From NCBI GenBank assembly GCA_964640985.1, contig CAZXJG010000004.1, positions 1 through 42,058 of the forward strand: a stretch of 42,058 nucleotides of DNA, given 5' to 3'. The position numbers and the translations under genes were made by a program. The notes beneath the pieces were generated by a model. The model worked only from the letters and a program-made list of their open reading frames with translations, had not been told where the DNA came from and did no database searches. The DNA comes from an uncultured Melioribacteraceae bacterium (GTDB taxonomy: Bacteria > Bacteroidota > Ignavibacteria > Ignavibacteriales > Melioribacteraceae). Of this stretch, positions 22,190 to 36,542 are shown in pieces (positions within the stretch are counted from its first letter, which is position 1; each line of letters starts with the position of its first letter).

Positions 22190-24448
22190 ATGAAAAAGTT
22201 TATAACTTTACTAACTTTTTTTCTTTTTACTATTGTTTCATTCTCGCAAACTTATCTTGATGTTAAACCAGGTTATGGTACATTAAACGATGCTATTGCA
22301 AAAAACCAAGGTAGTGTGGTATATAGGTTACAGGCAGGTCAATGGTACGGTTTGACAGGTATAATTCAAAATTCAAATTTTAAATTGACAATTATTGGTA
22401 CAACACCTTCTAATTCTAAAACAATGCCTGCAATGATACAAGTTGGTTCTGATGCCAATGGAATTCCGTTTTCAAACATGTTTTCAGTGTTTCAAGATTT
22501 AACATTAAAAAATGTTTTTATAACTGATGCAAATTCAAACAATATTCAAGCAGGTAAAGCACTTATTTCAATGCAAGCTACTGCTAAAATTACTATTGAT
22601 AGTGTAGTAGTTGATCCATTAAGTGTTACTAATGCTTTAATCGATTGTGGTAGTTCAAAAAAACCTGTTATTTATATAACTAATAGTATGTTTATTCATA
22701 GCGGACAGCAAGTAGACCCCAATGATGGACGTTTTATCGATATAAAAGGAGATCCAACAAACGGATACGATACGTTGTATATTGAAAATAACTCTTTTTT
22801 GTACACAGGTACTTGGTTTGTGGCAAATGAAAATTTTAATACTGGTAGAGATAACTTTGTTTGGATTAACCACAATACATTCATAGCACATAAAAGTCAA
22901 TTGCAATGGGATTGGTATATTAATGATGAGTATTTTACAAATAATTTATTATTTGATTTTAACACACAACCCTGGAATATAAATTGGAATTCTTATTTTC
23001 CAGACGGTACTGCTAAAATCGGAGGAAAAGAATCAAAATTTAGTCTTATTACTGCCGACACACTTTTTACAACAGATGCTAATGGAAATGTTGTCCGTGA
23101 ATCATTTCCATCTGTTAGAAAAAGTTTTGTTGAGTATAACCTAGATTACACTAATCCGAAAATATTAGATATACCTGCTTGGGGTAATGACCCAGCACAT
23201 ACGAAAAATAATGATGGAAAGACTCCAATTGATTATTCTTATTTGATGCCCCTTGTTCAACCGAAAGATTCGATGGCAGTTAGCAGGGAAGCAAGAATGT
23301 TTAATAGTCCAACGAATTTTCCAGGTTTTAAATATGGCAATACTTTAACAAATGTTGATCCTCAGTTTAATTTAAAAAAGATCTATGCTCTTTCAGATTC
23401 ATTAGCTGCTTGGACGTTTCCAGCAGCAGAAATACATAGTTGGGGTTTCGATCCCGCCAATGTGATGCCAGTTGCTCAGTGGCCGAAATTCTGGTATTAC
23501 CCTGACAGTTCTGGCCTAGGTAATCCTACTGCTTGGCCTCGCTTTGATGCTACATATTCAAATTCAAAGGTATTAACGTCTTCTATTGAAGGGCTTCCTT
23601 TGGGAGACCTAAATTGGTTTCCAAAAGCAAAAGCTGTTTGGCAAGCACATAAAAAGGAAATAATGGATCATATTTTAGCTGAAAATGTAAGTAAAATGAA
23701 TATTGGGGTGAAAGAAACAGCGGTATCGTCATCTAACGCAGCAGCATCTCTTGGACCAAGTAATGTATTAGATAATAATCCAAATACTTTTTGGGCTAGT
23801 ATTCCACATCTAAATGCCGATGCTGAAGAATGGATTTATCTAGACCAAGGTATGTCAAAAACAGTAGCTCAAATTGTTTTAGTCCCCCGAGCTGTTGCCG
23901 ATACAGTAGTCTATTGTTTCCCTCAAGCTTTTAAAATTCAATATAGTTCGGATGCGAGTACTTGGACAGACGTTCCTGGACAAAGTTACACTAATTATCC
24001 TAATCCAAAAAATAATAAAGGCGAAGTTTTTACTTTTTCTTCTCCTGTTAATAGTCGTTATATTCGGATTGATGCAACAAAACTACGTGTGGATGATAGT
24101 GGGATTAATTACTATTTTCAATTAGCTGAAATTAATTTATATAGTTCAGTTACTGCAGTAGATAGAGCTAAAAACGAGGTTGTTAAAACTTTTTCCTTAT
24201 CGCAAAACTATCCAAATCCGTTCAATCCTACCACAACCATTAGTTACAGTATAGCAAAACAAGGATTAGTTACATTAAATGTATATAATATGTTAGGACA
24301 ACGGGTAGCAACATTAGTAGATAAGTTGCAAAATGCAGGAGAATATTCGGTAAATTTTGATGCATCAAAATTAGCATCGGGAGTATACCTTTATAGAATA
24401 CAATCCGGTAATTTTTCTTTAACAAAGAAAATGATTTTGATGAAATAA
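22190..24448 (+). CDS. T9SS-secreted protein: N-terminal beta-helix-like region (function unknown), F5/8 type C (CBM32-like) domain, and T9SS C-terminal sorting domain
   Basis: 752 aa. RBS AAAGGAGG and a signal peptide. aa about 513-655 match the discoidin pattern (NVLDNNPNTFWAS...WIYLD...FKIQYS.D..TW..V...RYIRID...FQLAEINLY). The last 85 aa are a FSLSQNYPNPFNPTT...SGVYLYRI... sorting domain. Confidence 0.75.
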   Translation: MKKFITLLTFFLFTIVSFSQTYLDVKPGYGTLNDAIAKNQGSVVYRLQAGQWYGLTGIIQNSNFKLTIIGTTPSNSKTMPAMIQVGSDANGIPFSNMFSVFQDLTLKNVFITDANSNNIQAGKALISMQATAKITIDSVVVDPLSVTNALIDCGSSKKPVIYITNSMFIHSGQQVDPNDGRFIDIKGDPTNGYDTLYIENNSFLYTGTWFVANENFNTGRDNFVWINHNTFIAHKSQLQWDWYINDEYFTNNLLFDFNTQPWNINWNSYFPDGTAKIGGKESKFSLITADTLFTTDANGNVVRESFPSVRKSFVEYNLDYTNPKILDIPAWGNDPAHTKNNDGKTPIDYSYLMPLVQPKDSMAVSREARMFNSPTNFPGFKYGNTLTNVDPQFNLKKIYALSDSLAAWTFPAAEIHSWGFDPANVMPVAQWPKFWYYPDSSGLGNPTAWPRFDATYSNSKVLTSSIEGLPLGDLNWFPKAKAVWQAHKKEIMDHILAENVSKMNIGVKETAVSSSNAAASLGPSNVLDNNPNTFWASIPHLNADAEEWIYLDQGMSKTVAQIVLVPRAVADTVVYCFPQAFKIQYSSDASTWTDVPGQSYTNYPNPKNNKGEVFTFSSPVNSRYIRIDATKLRVDDSGINYYFQLAEINLYSSVTAVDRAKNEVVKTFSLSQNYPNPFNPTTTISYSIAKQGLVTLNVYNMLGQRVATLVDKLQNAGEYSVNFDASKLASGVYLYRIQSGNFSLTKKMILMK
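24191..24445 (+). repeat. T9SS sorting-domain coding module, copy 1 of 3
   Basis: An 85-codon module shared at nucleotide level with 28322-28576 and 32606-32860. Long identical runs include TTATCGCAAAACTATCCA and ATTAGCATCGGGAGT. Confidence 0.85.
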
Positions 24449-24483
24449 TGATCGTCATTTCAAAATTAGTCATGGAAAAACAA

Positions 24484-24512
24484 ATGGTTCATTTCTTTTT
24501 GAGATGAACCAT
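24484..24512. terminator. Stem-loop between the 22190 gene and the IS-like element
   Basis: ATGGTTCAT/ATGAACCAT is a perfect 9-bp stem, extendable to 12 bp with one G-U, with loop TTTTT. The U-tract (TTGTTTTTCC) is present only when read on the minus strand. Confidence 0.4.
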
Positions 24513-24537
24513 AAAATTGATGGAATCTGATGGTTGG

Positions 24538-25999
24538 GTAGTGTCAAAAGTATTGTGAAAAAATGAAAAGAATGCAAAAGAGACAACTTGCCTTCAAAGA
24601 ACAACAAACATGTGAAAATAGATTGTTCTTTGAAAATATGGATTTGTAAAGATAGAACATCTAAGTAGCCACAGAAATAATCTTATTTCACTTGTTTTTT
24701 GTATTAAAGCAATACCAGAGAACTCAGGTAATTCAAAGGGATCTTGTATTAAGAGCAGAATGTTCACGTACGAAAATATGGTGAGTAATGAAGATTACTA
24801 ATTTAGAAATAGCACCGTTGTTACTACCGAAGCCATTTTAGAATTGAATAAGCTGTTTTTCTGAGCAGTAATGGCATAAGAGATGTGAAGACTCAGAACA
24901 AGTGAAACAACGCTTATGCCATTATGAATAGCTCTTAAATTCACAGTAGGTTTTATGTGGTTGTGCAACTTTTAATTGATTAGGCAGGTAGTGGTACTCA
25001 CGATATTGATAATTTATCTTGAATTGTGATAACCTATGTTTTCTAAGTTCAATTTCTTCTGGATTAAGATTATTTAACTTAGCTAATCTATGCGGACACT
25101 TCCGGTTCGAACATTTATATACCTTATAGTCATTATTTTGCTTCTAAGTAAAAAGAGCCTTTGAACAATAAGGGCAATAATATTTTGTTTTCTTAAGAAA
25201 ACGTTTTTCAATTTGGAAAGTATTAAAACAAATCTTGCATTTAAGTTGAGAGTTCTTTTTCCCATCATTAAAATAAATGTAGTAATATGGTGCAGAACAA
25301 TGCGGGCAAGTAATGGAGTTTGGAACGGGATTAGACGAAGAGCGATATTTTATTGGCTGCAGAGTTTTACCCTTTCTTTGCTCATATAAACTCAGAAGAT
25401 ATTGGTAATTTAATTTCGGTTTGTTTTTAATCAACCTTGAAAATCCACCTTCTTTGAAGGTGGTCATGTTCATTTGGCTATGCCTGTATTTGTTGACATA
25501 AATTGAATGATGAATATCGATTAACGAACAATGATTTACGATGTAACTCGAAAACATCGAAAGTCTAAAATCGTTAATCGGTGTTCGATATTCAAAAAGC
25601 AGAGAACTCTCAAAAGCCCTCTATGGGGGCAAACCAAAGCCACCTTCTAAGAAGGTGGATTATTTACTGATTTCAGAAGCATCAAGCGGAGAAAATGGGT
25701 CGATGCTAAAAATTTCTGTAATTAGGATGTTTATCCGCAAAAGCGTCTTTCGGTTTAATATCGGAGTGTTTGTCTTCAATGATTTTCACCAGTTCATCAA
25801 TAACATTAAGAATCTCATTACGAGTGAATTTTTTACATATCCAAATTATTAATTTTCAAATTTTATTCATTGGCTTGCCTCATGAGTCCAAGAAAAATGG
25901 TTTTTTGCTCACCTTTTTCAGTGGAGGCAAATCAATTTAATAAAACTTGTTGTAATTAAACAAATTATATAAACCGGTAGTGTATATTTTTGACACTAC
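24538..25999 (-). mobile_element. Decayed IS-like element (about 1.46 kb) bounded by imperfect terminal inverted repeats
   Basis: GTAGTGTCAAAAGTAT (24538-24553) matches the reverse complement of 25984-25999 at 15 of 16 positions. The interior carries a stop-riddled Zn-ribbon ORF on the minus strand and several long hairpins. I saw no target-site duplication. Confidence 0.45.
24922..25557 (-). pseudogene. Zn-ribbon (CxxC...CxxC, twice) transposase-like gene interrupted by in-frame stops
   Basis: The track ORF 25144-25557 ends at TAG (25146-25144). The same frame continues KQNNDYKVYKCSNRKCPHRLAKLNNLNPEEIELRKHRLSQFKINYQYREYHYLPNQLKVAQPHKTYCEFKSYS, then TAA (24924-24922), then a further Cys-rich stretch WHKRCFTCSESSHLLCHYCSEKQ. 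No DDE domain is recognisable. Confidence 0.45.
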
Positions 26000-26016
26000 T
26001 CGATGTTTATTTAGGA

Positions 26017-26096
26017 GTAAGTAATGAAAGTAATAATTATACAAATACGGTTTTTATTATACTTCTTCCTTTTTTCGCTTGTTTTAGAAGCGCAAA
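26017..26096 (+). repeat. 80-nt direct repeat, copy 1 (RBS, start codon and whole signal peptide)
   Basis: 77 of 80 nt identical to 28813-28892 by hand alignment. Encodes MKVIIIQIRFLLYFFLFSLVLEAQ. Confidence 0.95.
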
Positions 26097-28579
26097 CATG
26101 GAATGTAAATCCGGATTATTGGTCGGCAACCGATGCATTAGGAAGGACTATACCTACCGAAAATGAAACAGGTTCAACAAAAAGCGGAAAATATGTCGGA
26201 ATATTCTATTGGACTTGGCATACAGATCAAAATGCCGATTTTTCACCTGTTATTAATATTTCAAATATTCTTAGGAAAGACCCTAATGCGGCACATGAAT
26301 TAAATAATCCGGCATGGAAAGGAATCATCAACGGTGGGGTTTTCTGGTGGGATGAACCTTTGTTTGGATACTACCGGACAACTGATGATTGGCTATTACG
26401 TAAACATGCCCAAATGCTTGCTGATGCCGGGATTGATGTAGTATTTTTTGATGCTACAAACGGCACTTATACTTGGAAATCATCTTATATGGAATTACTA
26501 AAAGTATGGGAACAAGCAAGAAAAGATGGGGTCAAGACTCCTCAAATCGCTTTCATTCTTCATTTCCGAGCTGATAAAGAGTCATTAGCCGAAATTACAG
26601 AATTATATAATGATTTATATCAACCTGGGTTATATAAAGATCTGTGGTTTATGTGGGATGGCAAACCTCTAATTATGGCCTATCCTGGAATGCTTGTAGC
26701 TAGCAATAATAGTGCCGGATTGAAATTTAAAGCTGATTCCTCATTTATTGGGGTGGATGCAGCTTGTCCTAGTTGGGGTAATAATATAGGTAATCTTACT
26801 TTAACATTGTACAAATGGAAAACTGATTATGCCACAACGGTTAATGGAACACCCATCGCAGATTCAACATTTGTAAATTTTCACGATAATGAACGTCTTA
26901 GATTAAATATTAAGCCACAACCTCCGGGAGAATATTATTGGGAGTTGAGCAATGCTACAGAGGTAGTTGGTGTTTGGAAATGGAATAATACAAAGGATTC
27001 GGTTACTAGTTATTTCAATGGAAAAGTTGTAACAGATGGTAATTATGACAGTAGAATTTATTATGCTGATGGTATTTCAAAAAATTTAACTAATGACGAT
27101 GGTACAGGTCATACGCCAGTTCAAATTCTACCGGGTGCAAATACTGCTTTAGTTAATGATATAAAGAATTTTTTCACATTCCGACCGGGTCAACCTGACT
27201 ATGTTAATGGTCCCTCACGAAATGACCAGTGGGGTTGGCTTGAAGATTATCCTCAGCATGGGTATGGTAAAAAAGCTAACGGCGGTTATGAAGAGGTACC
27301 GGTTGGAGTAGCTCAAAATGCCAGTGGTGCCAGCGGCGGTCATGCATCTGCTTTTAATGAACCTGATACTTATGGACGAAGTTACACTAAAGCCAATGGA
27401 CAAGATACTAGTTCTGATGCATATTTCTATGGACTTAATTTTCAAGAGCAATGGAGCAGAGCATTTGAATTAAATCCTGACCTAGTATTTGTTACCGGAT
27501 GGAATGAATGGATAGCAGGACGTTGGAGTACTACTAATTGGTCTAATCCTTATGCACCTTTTTCTTTCGTAGACGAATACAATTGGGGAAAAAGCCGCGA
27601 TATAGAACCTGTAAAATCATGGGGAGATAATGGAGATGACTATTACATGCAGTTAGTTAGTAACGTACGAAAGTTTAAGGGAATGCAAATGCAAGAACCT
27701 GCATCTGCTATGAAAACTATTATTATGGGAAAATTTGATGATTGGACAAATGTAAAACCGGAATACCGGGATTACAAGGGAGATACAATATGGCGGAACT
27801 CTAAAGGACAAGGCGATAGTCTTTATTACAGTAATCATACCGGACGCAATGATATAGTATTGGCAAAAGTAGCCAGGGATACAAATTATATTTATTTTTA
27901 TGTTGAAACTGCGGCAACTTTGACGTTCAAAACTAATCCTAAATGGATGCGGTTGTGGATAGATATTGACCGGAGCAAGAAAACCGGTTGGGAAGGATAT
28001 GATTATGTTATTAATCTGATAAGTCCGGGTGATTCACTAGTAATAGAGAAAAGCACGACCGGATGGAATTGGAAAAGAGTAGGTTCGGCAGCATACGCAA
28101 TAAAGGATAGTGCGCTGGAATTGAAAGTAAAACGATCATTATTGAATGTGAAAGGGAAAAAATTAAATTTTGAATTTAAGTGGAGCGATAACAGTGAGAA
28201 CGATGGTAATATTATGGATTTTTATGTTAATGGAGATGCTGCACCTGACGGCAGATTTAATTATGTATATTCAACTCAAACTACCACCGATGTAAGTGAA
28301 CAGACTAAACAACCGGAGAGTTTCTCCTTATCGCAAAACTACCCAAATCCGTTCAATCCCACTACAACAATTAATTACAGTATATATAAAAGCAGTTTGG
28401 TTACTCTTAAAGTCTACAATATGTTAGGACAGGGAGTTGCTACATTAGTTAACCAGGAACAAACCCCCGGAAACTATACGGTAAACTTCAATGCTTCAAG
28501 ATTAGCATCGGGTGTATATATGTATAAAATACAAGCCGGTGATTTTTCAGCAATAAAGAAAATGATTTTGCTTAAATGA
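26024..28579 (+). CDS. T9SS-secreted TIM-barrel glycoside-hydrolase-like protein, family unassigned, with C-terminal beta-sandwich module and sorting domain
   Basis: 851 aa. Core pattern GIFYWTWH...EPLFGYYRTTDDWLLRKHAQMLADAGIDVVFFDATNG...VTGWNEWIAGRW...FVDEYNWGKSRDIEP. C-terminal module ...TGRNDIVLAKVARDTNYIYFYVET...WIDIDRSKKTGWEGYDYVIN...FKWSDN...GDAAPDGRFNYVY. Last 85 aa are a T9SS sorting domain. Confidence 0.7.
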   Translation: MKVIIIQIRFLLYFFLFSLVLEAQTWNVNPDYWSATDALGRTIPTENETGSTKSGKYVGIFYWTWHTDQNADFSPVINISNILRKDPNAAHELNNPAWKGIINGGVFWWDEPLFGYYRTTDDWLLRKHAQMLADAGIDVVFFDATNGTYTWKSSYMELLKVWEQARKDGVKTPQIAFILHFRADKESLAEITELYNDLYQPGLYKDLWFMWDGKPLIMAYPGMLVASNNSAGLKFKADSSFIGVDAACPSWGNNIGNLTLTLYKWKTDYATTVNGTPIADSTFVNFHDNERLRLNIKPQPPGEYYWELSNATEVVGVWKWNNTKDSVTSYFNGKVVTDGNYDSRIYYADGISKNLTNDDGTGHTPVQILPGANTALVNDIKNFFTFRPGQPDYVNGPSRNDQWGWLEDYPQHGYGKKANGGYEEVPVGVAQNASGASGGHASAFNEPDTYGRSYTKANGQDTSSDAYFYGLNFQEQWSRAFELNPDLVFVTGWNEWIAGRWSTTNWSNPYAPFSFVDEYNWGKSRDIEPVKSWGDNGDDYYMQLVSNVRKFKGMQMQEPASAMKTIIMGKFDDWTNVKPEYRDYKGDTIWRNSKGQGDSLYYSNHTGRNDIVLAKVARDTNYIYFYVETAATLTFKTNPKWMRLWIDIDRSKKTGWEGYDYVINLISPGDSLVIEKSTTGWNWKRVGSAAYAIKDSALELKVKRSLLNVKGKKLNFEFKWSDNSENDGNIMDFYVNGDAAPDGRFNYVYSTQTTTDVSEQTKQPESFSLSQNYPNPFNPTTTINYSIYKSSLVTLKVYNMLGQGVATLVNQEQTPGNYTVNFNASRLASGVYMYKIQAGDFSAIKKMILLK
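28322..28576 (+). repeat. T9SS sorting-domain coding module, copy 2 of 3
   Basis: FSLSQNYPNPFNPTTTINYSI...LASGVYMYKIQAGDFSAIKKMILLK. Similar at nucleotide level to copies 1 and 3. Confidence 0.85.
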
Positions 28580-28812
28580 GTGCCAAGCAAAGCTATATTG
28601 CATCTATCCGGATGAAATGTTGCGAACATGGTAAAACTTTACGACCATGTAGTGAGGAGTCAATCTAACTGTACAGCCGAAAAAGCTGGACAAAAAGACT
28701 TATCCTATAAGGAAATGAAATGGATAAGTGTTGGCAGAAAGCCGGATAAGACCATTATTGTAATGTTAAATTTTCCAAGAAAATTGATAATATCTGATAA
28801 TTACTTTTAGAG

Positions 28813-28892
28813 GTAAGTAATGAAAATAATAATTATACAAATACGGTTTTTATTATACTTCTTCCTTTTTTCATTTGTTTTAGAAGCGCAAA
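28813..28892 (+). repeat. 80-nt direct repeat, copy 2 (RBS, start codon and signal peptide fused to a foreign ORF)
   Basis: Encodes MKIIIIQIRFLLYFFLFSFVLEAQ. Similarity to copy 1 stops at ...GAAGCGCAAA, and an internal ATG (MNPNHRAL...) follows immediately. Confidence 0.95.
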
Positions 28893-29884
28893 TGAATCCT
28901 AATCATCGGGCTTTACATGGTGTATTAGGCAGAACAACTACTCATAGAGCACAACAGTCGATCACACCCGTGGATAAGGAGGCAGTTCGGGCGCACTTAC
29001 AGGTAACTGACTTCACAATGCAGCCTGGTGAAGTGGATCAAGCCGTTGTGCTAAGGGATCCTGCCGGTGAGCAAACCGTACTCTTCGACTTGGCCGAAGG
29101 TGGAGCAATCGTTTCATTGAAATATCGTAACATCGAACACGTTTGGGGATATAATGGAGGAGGACTTTTACAAATGGCTTTCCACAATCATAGGAAGGGA
29201 GGGGGTGATTACAATCCCACTCAAGCCGGAGACGGAACAGCTATGTCACCTGTTACCGGCATCTCTGGTCATGGCACAGATTCGGTGGACATCTTAACCA
29301 TGATGCTTGATTTCAATCATAATAACGGATTCTACAAGCATCCATTCCTTGCTGTGTGGGCTGGAAGGATTGATAGCACTATTCCGCTCAGCTATTTTGC
29401 TCCCTATACACTCGAAACCATCGCTCATTGGGTGCCGAATCCTGGCGGCGAACCCAAATACTACCTTAAACTTGACGAGCGTATCACTCATCTTACCGAC
29501 GAGAAGATGGGACAATTCGCTTTTGATTTTGCAGACTATCAACCTTGGAGATTTAGTGTCCGGGCGATCAGCCCAGCGAACTGTCCATGCACATCATCGG
29601 AGACAAACTATATATCTGGAGGTTGGTACTTGGATAAGACGCGCCAAGAAGGCTTAGCCATCGCCATGCCAACCGGCGATTTTTCAAATAACAAGGTCAG
29701 CAGTAATTTTAATGAGGGTTTCAATAGCGATTACATGTGGCGCAACCGCAGTTTTCATCTCTCGGCAAAAGAATCGCTCGATGGAGTGTCATCGAAGCGC
29801 TTCGTTTGGTATGTAATGGTTGGTCCTTGGAATAATGCCTTGCAATTTGCTCGAAAACTCGGTCTTTCCGGAGGTGAGCGATGA
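28820..29884 (+). CDS. Exported protein of unknown family (member P1), G+C-rich, no T9SS sorting domain
   Basis: 354 aa. Paralog of the next gene (VLRDPAGEQ, LAVW.G, PYT.ET...W..NP.GEPKYYL). More distantly related to aa 24-300 of the 31226 gene (DL..GGAI, NP.QAGD, ...Y.VGP/T C-terminal strand). Confidence 0.7.
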   Translation: MKIIIIQIRFLLYFFLFSFVLEAQMNPNHRALHGVLGRTTTHRAQQSITPVDKEAVRAHLQVTDFTMQPGEVDQAVVLRDPAGEQTVLFDLAEGGAIVSLKYRNIEHVWGYNGGGLLQMAFHNHRKGGGDYNPTQAGDGTAMSPVTGISGHGTDSVDILTMMLDFNHNNGFYKHPFLAVWAGRIDSTIPLSYFAPYTLETIAHWVPNPGGEPKYYLKLDERITHLTDEKMGQFAFDFADYQPWRFSVRAISPANCPCTSSETNYISGGWYLDKTRQEGLAIAMPTGDFSNNKVSSNFNEGFNSDYMWRNRSFHLSAKESLDGVSSKRFVWYVMVGPWNNALQFARKLGLSGGER

Positions 29885-31005
29885 GAATTGAAACTTATAA
29901 CCGTCAGCCCAAACCTCATTGGAATAGGCTAAGAACAAAATGCTTTCTAATGATCTTCATCTTCATCATTTTGGCCGGTGGTCCTGTAAAGAGCCAACAA
30001 ATTCCAGACGTCCGGTGTCACACCGAAGATTATCCTGTGAATATGGTTATCTCCTGGCAATCGCGACGGACGCTCAAAACCGTACAAGTAATTGTATTGC
30101 GTGATCCGGCGGGCGAACAAGAAGCACGATTCGATTTGACCCATGGGGCTTCGTTGATTTCGTTGCGCTACCACGGACACGAACTCTTGTATGGGCATAG
30201 TGCAGGAGCGAATGTTGAAATGTTCGCTTTTCGACACGGTAGAGAAAAAGGATTAAAAGGTCGTAGTTCTTACTGGTCCGCGTTTCACCCAAGCCAAGGT
30301 GGAACAAGTATGGGTGTAGCATCCACGACAGTAGGTGTTGCCTGCAATGGCGAGAAGTCAATGCGGGCTATTGCAATGATGGTGGATGCAGGTGTGGACA
30401 ATTCCTTTCAGAAAAAGCCTTTACTCGCTGTGTGGAAAGGTAAGTTAAGCAATCATTTCCCGCCTGGCTATTCCACTCCATACACAATTGAAACAGATGC
30501 GAGTTGGATTCAAAATCCCAATGGTGAACCGAAATACTACTTGAGACTTCATCAAGTAGTCGTGAATGTCCGACCGTCTAACTCAGGTCCTATGGAGTGG
30601 TTTTTAGAAGGTGTAGCACCGTGGTCATTCAAGTATAAGGTCGATGAACCGAAAAACAGTACTGAAAAAACGCCCAGTACCAGCACTACAACACCATTTC
30701 TTATGACCGGACGCTACCAAGACCCGGCACGGACACATGGTTTTGCCATTGTTGTTCCTACCGCAAGCTGGGCGACGAAGCGGGCTTATATTATGGGCAA
30801 CGCTGAATACGTCAAGCTTCTTTATGGAGCTGTTTGGGCCGCACCTCGCCACACTTTTGCCGTGGTCTTATCGCATCAACTCGAGGGTTTGAGAGCATAC
30901 TCTTTTGATTGGTATATCTGCGCAGGGAGCTGGCAACAGGCTCGCGCTTTTGGAGAGTCCTTAACACGTAAAAGTCAATCAAAAGCGACAAAATTCAGTC
31001 ATTAG
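29881..31005 (+). CDS. Exported protein of unknown family (member P2), G+C-rich
   Basis: 374 aa. ATGA start/stop overlap with P1 suggests translational coupling. Has its own hydrophobic N-terminus (CFLMIFIFIILAGGPVKSQQ). Carries HPSQGG where P1 and P3 have NP.QAGD. Confidence 0.7.
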   Translation: MRIETYNRQPKPHWNRLRTKCFLMIFIFIILAGGPVKSQQIPDVRCHTEDYPVNMVISWQSRRTLKTVQVIVLRDPAGEQEARFDLTHGASLISLRYHGHELLYGHSAGANVEMFAFRHGREKGLKGRSSYWSAFHPSQGGTSMGVASTTVGVACNGEKSMRAIAMMVDAGVDNSFQKKPLLAVWKGKLSNHFPPGYSTPYTIETDASWIQNPNGEPKYYLRLHQVVVNVRPSNSGPMEWFLEGVAPWSFKYKVDEPKNSTEKTPSTSTTTPFLMTGRYQDPARTHGFAIVVPTASWATKRAYIMGNAEYVKLLYGAVWAAPRHTFAVVLSHQLEGLRAYSFDWYICAGSWQQARAFGESLTRKSQSKATKFSH

Positions 31006-31091: not shown

Positions 31092-31202
31092 ATTAATGAG
31101 TCCACTAAAGAAAGATGCATTCATAGAAAAAATGTTTTGATTATGGCAGAAAAACGAATCCCAATATTGGTATAATTACCTTTTTTTAGTGGACTCATTA
31201 AT
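31092..31202. repeat. 111-bp element with 23-nt terminal inverted repeats (22 of 23 matched)
   Basis: ATTAATGAGTCCACTAAAGAAAG (31092-31114) against the reverse complement of 31180-31202, ATTAATGAGTCCACTAAAAAAAG. The loop is 65 nt. The element ends 23 nt before the ATG at 31226. Confidence 0.8.
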
Positions 31203-31225: not shown

Positions 31226-32863
31226 ATGGTAATGAAAATATTGTTTATTCTATTAATAATAGAAGTGTTCAGTTTATCAAGATTAAATGCTCAAACTACT
31301 GAACTAATTGCAGATAATGGGGTACTAAAAGTTAAACTTGATTTAACAAGAGGTGGAGCCATTAGTTATATTTCTCTTTCGGGGAGCAACCTGAATTTGG
31401 TTAATATACACGACAATGGCAGGTACATACAGCAATCTTATTATGCCGGCAAAAGAGTTGACCGTAGAGCCGAAGGTCAGAATCCCGCATGGTCACCCTT
31501 TCCGTGGAATCCTGTTCAAGCAGGAGACAGTTATGGTAATCGCTCAAAAGTACTCGATTACCAACAAAATGGAGATACATTATATGTAAAGAGTATACCA
31601 ATGCTTTGGGATATGAATAATATGCCTGCTGAAGCCGAAATAGAACAGTGGACTATCCTAAAAGGAAATATTATAGAAGTGCATAACAAACTTACTTGTC
31701 ACAGAACAGGTAATATTTATGGAGATAATATACTTCATATTCAAGAATTACCTGCGGTATATTTGATATCCGCATTAAGTAATTTATACACATATTCGGG
31801 TGATGTTCCTTTTACTAATGATATTTTAGATAAGTCTGCTGTTGTAAATTTATCAAGCGGAGGCTGGGGTCAATATCCAACCGTTAGTGAGCATTGGATG
31901 GCATTTGTAAATAATAACAAGTGGGGGGTTGGTATCTACAATCCAAATAGTACTTACTTTTCAGCCGGTATGGCTGGTAATCCCGGCGGCGAAGCTCATG
32001 ATGGTTCTACATCTTATATCTCAGCGAATAGATGGGAAACGTTGAATAAAAATAGTGTATTCGAATATGATTATTATATTATAGTAGGCACGGTGGAAGA
32101 AATACGGGCTAAAGTTTACCAATTGAATGTAAAGAATTACCATCCTCAAATTGAGCGGTGGGAATTTAATGATGATAATAATTTTGAAGGGTGGGGGCTT
32201 TCTCATTCACTTTCGGGCAAAGTAGCAAACGGTTATCTTAATTTGCAAATAACAGGCATCGATCCTTATATGGAAAACTATAATAGTTTGCTTGACGCAT
32301 TAAAGATTAATACCCTTGATATTAAGATGAAAAATAATACTACAGATAACCAAGCAGCCTTTTTTTTTATTCGTTCTGATTCAGTTTTATATCATATGAT
32401 TGGTTTCAATATCGTTCCTAATGATACCGTATACCGTGATTATTTAATTAAACTTGATAGCAATGTAGGATGGAAAGGTACTGTTGTAAGAGTTCGTTTA
32501 GATCCGGCACAAAATGTATCCACAGGTTCTATTAGTATAGATTATATCCGGTTGGAAAATGATATATCAACGAATGTAGCAGTAAATAAATATATGCCGT
32601 TCAAATATGTATTATCGCAAAACTATCCAGATCCATTCAATCCTACTACAACCATTAATTACAAGGTAGCAAAAGTAGGATTAGTCACATTAAATGTATA
32701 CGATATGTTGGGACAACGAGTAGCAACATTGGTAAATAAAGTTCAAAATACAGGGAAATATTCTATTAATTTTGATGCATCAAGATTAGCATCGGGAGTT
32801 TATATGTATAGAATAAATGCCGGTAATTTTTCAGCAACTAAAAAATTGGTATTATTGAAATGA
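31226..32863 (+). CDS. T9SS-secreted protein: unknown-family domain (member P3), CBM-like beta-sandwich, and sorting domain
   Basis: 545 aa with native AT-rich composition and a signal peptide. aa 24-300 are homologous to P1 and P2. The middle module ERWEFNDDNNFEGWG...NGYLNLQITGIDPYM...VRVRLDP...ISIDYIRLEN looks like a carbohydrate-binding or jelly-roll module. Last 85 aa are a T9SS sorting domain. Confidence 0.7.
   Translation: MVMKILFILLIIEVFSLSRLNAQTTELIADNGVLKVKLDLTRGGAISYISLSGSNLNLVNIHDNGRYIQQSYYAGKRVDRRAEGQNPAWSPFPWNPVQAGDSYGNRSKVLDYQQNGDTLYVKSIPMLWDMNNMPAEAEIEQWTILKGNIIEVHNKLTCHRTGNIYGDNILHIQELPAVYLISALSNLYTYSGDVPFTNDILDKSAVVNLSSGGWGQYPTVSEHWMAFVNNNKWGVGIYNPNSTYFSAGMAGNPGGEAHDGSTSYISANRWETLNKNSVFEYDYYIIVGTVEEIRAKVYQLNVKNYHPQIERWEFNDDNNFEGWGLSHSLSGKVANGYLNLQITGIDPYMENYNSLLDALKINTLDIKMKNNTTDNQAAFFFIRSDSVLYHMIGFNIVPNDTVYRDYLIKLDSNVGWKGTVVRVRLDPAQNVSTGSISIDYIRLENDISTNVAVNKYMPFKYVLSQNYPDPFNPTTTINYKVAKVGLVTLNVYDMLGQRVATLVNKVQNTGKYSINFDASRLASGVYMYRINAGNFSATKKLVLLK
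32606..32860 (+). repeat. T9SS sorting-domain coding module, copy 3 of 3
   Basis: My codon-by-codon hand alignment to copy 1 gives about 50 mismatches in 255 nt, roughly 80% identity. Confidence 0.85.
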
Positions 32864-36227: not shown

Positions 36228-36542
36228 ATGACAAAAATTGCTTTCAAAATGAAATTAAAACCCGGCTGTAAAAAAGAATATATTAGAAGACATAATGAAA
36301 TATGGCCGGAATTAAAGGAATTACTTATAAATAACGGTATACATGATTACACTATTTTTTTCGATAATGAAACGAACACTCTTTTTGCTGTTCAATATCA
36401 AGAGGGTTCTATCTCTTCACAAGATTTAGGCAATAATGTAATAGTTAAGAAATGGTGGAAATATATGGCTGATATTATGGAAACCAATCATGAACTATCA
36501 CCAATTACAGTTCCACTTGAAAAAGTATTTCACATGGATTAA
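36228..36542 (+). CDS. rhaM: L-rhamnose mutarotase
   Basis: 104 aa. FKMKLKPG...EY..RH.EIWPEL and YTIF pattern of the RhaM/YiiL family. Confidence 0.88.
   Translation: MTKIAFKMKLKPGCKKEYIRRHNEIWPELKELLINNGIHDYTIFFDNETNTLFAVQYQEGSISSQDLGNNVIVKKWWKYMADIMETNHELSPITVPLEKVFHMD

Follow-up and report, generated by a model that had tools for sequence, protein, structure and literature searches.

A secretion leader shared by two unrelated neighbouring genes of a rhamnose-polysaccharide utilisation locus probably reflects repeated copying of a 5' module

The 42,058-nucleotide (nt) stretch of Melioribacteraceae DNA analysed here (the window) carries two adjacent, unrelated genes, gene A and P1, which begin with nearly the same sequence from the ribosome-binding site (RBS) to the end of the signal peptide. 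We consider it probable that P1 is a chimera, the 5' end of which was copied from the upstream gene A in an old capture followed by a recent refresh. One export signal was thereby swapped for another, and no newly secreted protein was created. The two genes and their leaders are as follows.

26010..26096, + strand: leader copy 1 (gene A), with the Shine-Dalgarno (SD) sequence TAGGAG, the ATG at 26024, the signal peptide MKVIIIQIRFLLYFFLFSLVLEA and the Gln at +1.
26024..28579, + strand: gene A, 851 amino acids (aa), secreted, with a type A C-terminal sorting domain of the type IX secretion system (T9SS); the putative leader donor.
28806..28892, + strand: leader copy 2 (P1), with the SD sequence TAGAGG, the ATG at 28820, the signal peptide MKIIIIQIRFLLYFFLFSFVLEA and the Gln at +1.
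28820..29884, + strand: P1, 354 aa, the open reading frame (ORF) with leader copy 2.

The leaders form a direct repeat, 26010-26096 and 28806-28892, in which 82 of 87 nt match; the longest stretch free of mismatches is 46 nt, and the start-to-start spacing is 2796 nt. Relative to the ATG of its ORF (26024 in gene A, 28820 in P1), each copy runs from -14 to +73 and includes a Shine-Dalgarno sequence, the start codon, 23 codons of signal peptide and one Gln codon. The original prediction had counted 77 identical positions out of 80 over 26017-26096 and 28813-28892, and this count is exact and does cover the RBS, the ATG and the signal peptide. Relative to gene A, the P1 copy has GGAG changed to GAGG in the SD sequence and two altered residues, and both copies carry private differences on either side of the 46-nt exact core. 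GTA/ATA and CGC/CAT are further differences between the copies. A 28-nt pattern of the repeat core, with up to 3 mismatches allowed, had no site in the window beyond the two copies (0 expected, from 100 shuffles), and when 1113 gene starts from 105 related loci were compared, the window pair was the only case of non-homologous neighbours sharing a leader. A further leader-like match (24780-24811) was rejected, consisting only of an RBS and ATG consensus followed by a 17-codon ORF that lacks a hydrophobic stretch.

Both leaders display the features of Sec export and signal peptidase I cleavage, namely, an MK..R n-region, an FLLYFFLFS(L/F)VL h-region (Kyte-Doolittle maximum 2.49) and a terminal ..LEA/Q. 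The Bacteroidetes Q-rule extends to Ignavibacteria, with a Q-value of 77% in I. album (PMC5837995); since Ignavibacterium obeys this rule, signal peptidase I is predicted to cut gene A and P1 at LEA/Q, so that the high-identity tract would end directly after the +1 residue. No Cys, and hence no lipobox for signal peptidase II, occurs in residues 1-60 of gene A or P1.

A repeat of this kind beside a change of composition could also mark a chimeric join between contigs. The assembly is probably of the metagenome type, as the exact P1 protein has no record in the assembly index and its relatives all come from metagenome-assembled genomes (MAGs); in addition, a 46-nt exact run could collapse short k-mers, and the GC change is sharp. 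However, the related locus L001, an independent Joint Genome Institute assembly (JGI 3300044578), has the same leader on P1 (91% identical to copy 1 over 87 nt and 89% to copy 2 over 66 nt) together with orthologous upstream spacer, and the gene order A-P1-P2, where P2 is a paralogue of P1, matches the L004/L008 locus along with both flanks. Moreover, an artefact would require two in-frame joins, each repeat copy has private differences, and the step in G+C content at third codon positions (GC3) lies 65 nt past the repeat. An assembly artefact is thus very improbable. Searches outside the related loci were less telling: the leader DNA pattern had 0 matches in genome and metagenome contig collections, the metagenome negative being weak, as that collection lacks the L001 contig; a 40-aa leader query found no candidate in a set of 5.8 billion proteins, which is uninformative, as the known positive P0001, the P1 protein of L001, was also missed; and phmmer with residues 1-40 of P1 gave 0 matches among 1.84 billion cluster representatives, at a low sensitivity (24-aa signal, clusters at 50% identity).

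The sequence downstream of the leaders, which defines where the copied part of P1 ends, comprises the following features.

26105..26149, + strand: codons 28-42 of gene A (VNPDYWSATDALGRT), its native mature N-terminus, to which the P1 linker is colinear.
28580..28805, + strand: gene A-P1 spacer, the last ~50 nt of which are orthologous to the sequence 5' of P1 in L001.
28892..28936, + strand: P1 codons 25-39 (MNPNHRALHGVLGRT), putatively a decayed remnant of the copied 5' end of gene A, following a 9-nt deletion; includes the Met25 ATG.
28937..28957, + strand: rest of the P1 linker (TTHRAQQ), with GC3 still host-like.
28958..29884, + strand: P1 core, a conserved domain with a predicted beta-supersandwich (putatively mutarotase-like) fold and a GC3 of 0.47.
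29881..31005, + strand: P2, a P1 paralogue (32% identity) with its own, different signal peptide and a GC3 of 0.43.

The chimeric junction lies ~45-65 nt downstream of LEAQ, because GC3 remains host-like (0.18) over 28892-28957 and jumps to 0.47 from 28958, where the conserved P1 core begins. The original prediction had placed both the end of similarity and the shift in composition directly at LEAQ. High identity does stop after the Gln codon, but a weaker colinear block of 45 nt follows a 9-nt gap; likewise, total G+C does climb past 28892, but GC3 jumps only at 28958. Within this block, gene A VNPDYWSATDALGRT aligns in frame with P1 MNPNHRALHGVLGRT at 27 of 45 nt, with local-alignment p values of ~0.011-0.015 (nt) and 0.002 (aa), in which the matching position is not yet allowed for. 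The post-LEAQ homology was judged by colinear DNA and protein alignment statistics, rank tests and a motif census, instead of by a 20-aa hidden Markov model (HMM). The motif ATDALGR, located just past the gene A signal peptide, is invariant or nearly so across the gene A family and is degenerate in P1, which points to gene A as the donor of the leader. Since the end of the gene A-P1 spacer is orthologous to L001, the leader copy would have replaced only -14 to +73 plus a short stretch beyond.

In copy 2, an in-frame ATG does stand directly after LEAQ, as the original prediction stated. From this ATG, P1 had been taken for an acquired cytoplasmic enzyme that retains its own, non-secretory start at 28892 and gained secretion, and a new route to the cell envelope, through duplication of a resident signal. 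The position of the ATG next to the repeat and the outlying GC3 of the P1-P2 body favor this account, and the gene A module is indeed copied in frame onto the non-homologous P1. However, the recipient already had a signal: a hydrophobic N-terminal h-region is present in 92 of 97 full-length P1 homologues, near and distant, and inspection identifies their N-termini as normal signal peptides with ..AQ or ..SQ at the end. A separate signal is present on the paralogue P2 as well, and in P0001, the nearest homologue (84% aa identity), the signal peptide of P1 recurs and is joined straight to QSITPVDKEA, without Met25. The original prediction had itself named homologues that natively carry the same signal peptide as evidence that would count against it, and P0001 is such a homologue. 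The segment after the ATG aligns with the post-signal linkers of the homologues and with the gene A mature N-terminus, has host-like GC3, and falls in a disordered region of the AlphaFold2 model of P1 (pLDDT 70, pTM 0.72), which has an N-terminal helix (2-22), a disordered part (21-57, pLDDT < 50) and a beta-supersandwich. Translation from M25 would yield a protein that lacks a hydrophobic segment (Kyte-Doolittle maximum 0.37, versus 2.49 from M1). Because the homologues have signals, the linker is disordered and host-like in GC3, no signal begins at M25, and P0001 lacks the Met, the ATG at 28892 is a chance Met in the linker. A cytoplasmic origin of P1 is therefore hardly credible, and the event is a replacement of signal for signal rather than a rerouting to the envelope.

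This linker varies within the family. In acidobacterial P1 homologues, the signal is followed directly by ..(S/A)Q-Q(S/A)-x-TPVDKEAVR, whereas many low-GC homologues have a variable linker between the signal and the TPVDKEA core; the MNPNHRALHGVLGRTTTHRAQQ of the window fills this position (compare P0004, ..ACTATDTLGSTTNQEAQQSPTPIDKEA). The window linker includes NPNHRALHGVLGRT, and its distal part (LG.TT...AQQS.TP.DKEA) is common to P1 orthologues of other species. Its AQ/QS resembles the native cleavage region of the acidobacterial homologues (..SQQSATPVDKEA) and may be a relic site.

Several comparisons with other loci suggest that the 5' module of gene A replaced the own signal of P1 early in the low-GC clade. 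Among 384 signal-like N-termini taken from all loci, the 8 best matches to the signal peptide of P0124, a gene A orthologue of another genome, were P1 orthologues. At the DNA level, the 5' end of the same orthologue (locus L106), compared with 239 low-GC gene starts, placed gene A orthologues at ranks 1-4 and P1 orthologues at ranks 5-12, with the window P1 tied at rank 13 with one unrelated start. The alignment of gene A and P1 5' ends has CAACCTTGGTTCAT...TTGGACTGCAACAGACA in common, with a gap of 21 nt in L003, L007 and L010 versus 9 nt in the window. A census of the motifs W[TS][AE]TD.L or [TS]ATD[AT]LG in 850,000 aa of six-frame ORFs found them only just past the signals of gene A orthologues (3) and P1 orthologues (3). 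In addition, the low-GC P1 proteins are monophyletic in a rough neighbour-joining tree of P1 cores, and the signals that they carry clearly form a single family, (K)IIL..WFILLCFLFPL.I.AQ.W, akin to gene A signals. These gene-A-like 5' ends on P1 orthologues across the clade, together with the synteny of A-P1-P2 in L004/L008, do not bear out a fresh acquisition at the junction, as had first been proposed. The early replacement may have coincided with the arrival of the module from a higher-GC donor.

In the lineage of the window, the leader tract appears to have been renewed since then. The leader copies differ at 5 of 87 nt, as compared with 18 of 45 in the next colinear block (Fisher p = 2e-6), and of the conserved codons, 1 of 22 in the signal peptide versus 4 of 6 in the block differ synonymously (Fisher p = 0.003). 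Because neither synonymous sites nor the 5' untranslated region (UTR) can be shielded by selection on the peptide, the leader tract would be younger than the block. A single, fairly recent duplication of ~140 nt of the gene A 5' end, with the signal kept by purifying selection and the linker decaying fast, would require just one colinear block, and given that third positions have diverged by 19% between the window and L001, an unconstrained linker could have reached ~20-30%. However, the unprotected synonymous sites and 5' UTR, with the contrast of 1/22 and 4/6, stand against it, as do the P1 genes of other species in which the gene-A-like 5' end carries another deletion, of 21 nt, and the match of these orthologues to the distal part of the window linker. 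A single duplication is thus rather unlikely, and we favor an old capture plus a recent refresh.

The comparison with L001 bears on how the refresh took place. The P1 core differs by 9.5% between the window and L001 (19% at third positions), and P1-P2 is 88% identical over 2069 nt. Over 85 nt of the leader, the window gene A and window P1 differ at 5 sites, the window gene A and L001 P1 at 8, and the window P1 and L001 P1 at 13, and at no site do the two P1 leaders agree with each other against gene A. The Poisson probability of ≤5 differences is 0.011 (≥13 expected for plain orthologues, with a clock assumed). Leader similarity within the genome thus exceeds similarity between orthologues (small numbers, p ~0.01 under a clock), an older colinear homology continues past the tract, and the tract has abrupt borders, at the 9-nt indel (3') and at -14 (5'). 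Ectopic gene conversion from gene A into P1 is the simplest reading of these observations, which we put forward from the sequence comparisons; a second partial duplication would leave the same picture.

Several points weigh against this two-step reading. The census motif was picked after seeing the data, and an HMM of the 20-aa gene A mature N-terminus had no significant match among the P1 linkers (best E 0.34, like shuffles). The P1 leader of the syntenic L004 does not resemble gene A (rank 94 of 239); the old capture would either not be universal in the low-GC clade or have been erased in L004. Finally, the test for conversion after speciation consists of 5 versus 13 differences under an assumption of equal rates, and L001, at ~90% nt identity, is the closest relative available for comparison.

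The identity of the leaders might instead be selected as a functional unit, serving translational or small-RNA control or matched Sec targeting. The identity does span elements that determine initiation rates, namely, the SD sequence and the first codons; gene A occurs together with P1/P2 in different phyla; and the T9SS C-terminal domains of unrelated cargo genes are likewise closer within the genome than between orthologues. However, the RNA structure of the leaders is neither stable nor unusual (z-scores -0.31 and -1.32), they have no Rfam match at E ≤ 1, related loci have diverged gene A and P1 leaders, and the P1 copy is altered in the SD sequence and at two residues. A promoter and terminator scan found promoters not above shuffles and nothing relevant at the leaders. 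We consider such a functional unit decidedly unlikely.

The copying that we favor would have proceeded as follows. The P1 core (from ~28958) is part of a widespread, natively Sec-exported P1-P2 module, which both Acidobacteriota and low-GC Ignavibacteria/Bacteroidota-like bacteria carry in rhamnose-polysaccharide loci, and the P1 5' end would be a gene A copy that runs from the RBS and ATG through the signal peptide and +1 Gln to ~15 decayed codons. At least two transfers of the gene A 5' end to P1 would be needed. In the first, the gene A signal peptide and ~20 mature codons would have displaced the own signal of P1 in the low-GC clade. In the second, in the lineage of the window and L001, the surviving homology would have been the substrate for ectopic (non-allelic) conversion or a second partial duplication, which would have rewritten -14 to +73 with the current leader of gene A, the tract stopping at the homology-breaking 9-nt indel. 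Both proteins would then use Sec export and be cut by signal peptidase I at LEA/Q, with gene A presumably continuing via the T9SS and P1 staying periplasmic.

The repeats also flank gene A, and its excision through them had been suggested. The 46-nt exact run makes this mechanistically plausible, but no deletion product was found, and L001 is not one, as it retains the A-P1 spacer upstream of the leader. No recombinase lies in the interval, and none of the contig collections contained the leader pattern. RecA-mediated deletion or duplication between the 87-nt repeats is plausible in principle.

The candidate donor, gene A, is recognizable as a T9SS cargo by a Por_Secre_tail/TIGR04183 domain at residues 773-848 (E 7.5e-12 and 2.7e-13). 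Its ~750-aa core (window 26024-28320) has no relative in Pfam, NCBIfam or PDB by sequence and profile searches. More than 5000 homologues of this core were found, some with extra PA14 or CBM6 domains, and it probably represents a large uncharacterised family of carbohydrate-active enzymes. Two gene A relatives, P0125 (851 aa) and P0219 (615 aa), have the identical signal peptide MRKIILLSCSLLLYFLFPLILEAQ, which may be another case of a shared leader.

P1 and P2 belong to no Pfam, NCBIfam or PDB family according to sequence and profile searches. They also do not match the T9SS sorting-domain models, and since they lack such a domain, they are predicted to stop in the periplasm. The top PDB matches of P1 in Foldseek were the mutarotase-like Slr1438 and YeaD and the supersandwich domains of GH94 and GH38 enzymes (E 8e-6 to 1e-4, TM 0.36-0.43), and a profile search against PDB gave a weak match to hexose-6-P mutarotase (E 0.94); the mutarotase-like assignment of the modelled core is a hint at the level of fold only. 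The P1-P2 module was found in about 100 loci, in the order P1-P2 in low-GC Ignavibacteria/Bacteroidota-like MAGs and P2-P1, sometimes fused, in most Acidobacteriota, and gene A relatives are often near the module in Acidobacteriota and the low-GC group alike. In the window, the P1 stop and P2 start overlap at 29881-29884 (ATGA). P0002 and P0003 (575-587 aa) resemble P2-P1 fusions, and in L014 the whole P1-P2 module is in tandem duplication.

The locus itself is a rhamnose-polysaccharide utilisation cluster, with a TonB-dependent receptor, F5/8-type-C T9SS proteins, GH78-type rhamnosidases and rhaM. It is syntenic with L004/L008, a 338-kb MAG contig, the common order being 618 aa-TonB receptor-F5/8-gene A-P1-P2-F5/8-rhamnosidase, with aa identities of 76% for gene A, 74% for P1 and 77% for P2. 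The P1-P2 body has a GC3 of 0.43, as compared with 0.19-0.28 in the other 23 genes of the window. The GC content of P1/P2 equals that of the flanks in Acidobacteria, whereas it is 3 to 12 points higher in every low-GC host and 13.5 points higher in the window, a pattern that is consistent with an old inter-phylum transfer with incomplete amelioration, or with repeated replacement. The segment does not have the profile of a recently acquired island: its GC3 is an outlier, but A-P1-P2 is syntenic in L004/L008, and no integrase or transposase lies at the borders. A 23-nt inverted repeat (31092-31114 and 31180-31202, 96% complementary, arms 65 nt apart) sits in the spacer between P2 and the gene at 31226, at the right edge of the GC-rich segment. 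The L-rhamnose mutarotase gene rhaM lies at 36228-36542 in the window, ~5 kb 3' of P2, whereas in L001 (273-587) it is directly upstream of P1; the two genes are 84% (aa) and 87% (nt) identical, and their different positions show that the locus was rearranged between the window and L001.

Between the upstream F5/8 gene and gene A, 1.5 kb (24449-26009) hold no convincing gene, whereas the equivalent spacer in L004 is ~125 nt. On the minus strand of this gap lies a Zn-ribbon-like ORF of 137 aa (25144-25557) that does not reach Pfam thresholds, and inverted repeats occur at 25442-25463 and 25640-25661 (95%) and at 25503-25544 and 25554-25595. It may be a decayed insertion; a suspected insertion sequence remnant was not confirmed, the Zn-ribbon-like ORF being all that was found.

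The T9SS C-terminal sorting domains at 24190-24446, 28321-28577 and 32606-32860, which belong to three unrelated genes (the 22190 gene, gene A and the 31226 gene), are 73-82% identical in DNA, whereas each is only 58-70% identical to that of its own L004 orthologue. The pattern points to concerted evolution, or an exchange of modules, at the C-terminal signal of the three cargo genes as well. A broader reading, tentative and on balance doubtful, would treat the targeting signals of the locus as exchangeable cassettes, with the RBS and Sec module of gene A copied onto P1 once upon entry of P1-P2 into low-GC hosts from a high-GC donor and once more recently, and the three C-terminal domains homogenised in parallel; such exchange would be selected because foreign enzymes are thereby fitted to translation and export in the host, and the export of cooperating enzymes is matched.

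For annotation, the analysis fixes the start of P1 at 28820 and predicts periplasmic export. More generally, export signals can pass between unrelated neighbouring genes via partial duplication or gene conversion, and because signals are mobile between neighbours, an in-frame ATG at such a junction should not be taken as the ancestral start.

The event is of a kind already known, and no new system or mechanism is involved. In the bab/sab outer-membrane paralogues of Helicobacter pylori, the 5' and 3' gene ends undergo ectopic conversion and concerted evolution. As here, a short tract at a gene end has abrupt borders and a similarity within the genome above that of the rest of the genes and of the orthologues; however, those genes are paralogues, whereas gene A and P1 are unrelated apart from the captured 5' module. 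In the vsa/vsp genes of Mycoplasma and the slp genes of Lactobacillus, surface protein families share expression-site leaders. There too, several genes use one promoter-proximal leader and signal peptide, whereas the window has no recombinase, inverted arrangement or silent cassettes, only two direct copies, each part of a complete gene.

We note three less usual aspects of the present case. First, the donor and recipient are unrelated neighbours. Second, the RBS and some of the mature sequence of the donor were copied along with the signal. Third, three states are present in public data, namely, native (the Acidobacteria-type signal peptide followed by TPVDKEA), captured and diverged (L003, L007 and L010) and freshly homogenised (the window and L001). 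The gain or replacement of signal peptides by acquisition of an N-terminal region has been described (Hoenigschmid et al. 2018, Genome Biol Evol, PMC5952966), and the cases in that work resemble ours in the wholesale acquisition of an N-terminal segment, as opposed to point mutations. Our case departs from them in that the donor can be named and is the non-homologous gene next to P1 on its upstream side, a signal was present in the recipient beforehand, and the copied stretch extends to the RBS and to part of the mature donor sequence. The signals themselves agree with the Q-rule signals of Bacteroidetes (Bochtler et al. 2018, PMC5837995) in their K/R n-region, hydrophobic h-region and a cleavage, predicted here, that exposes Gln.

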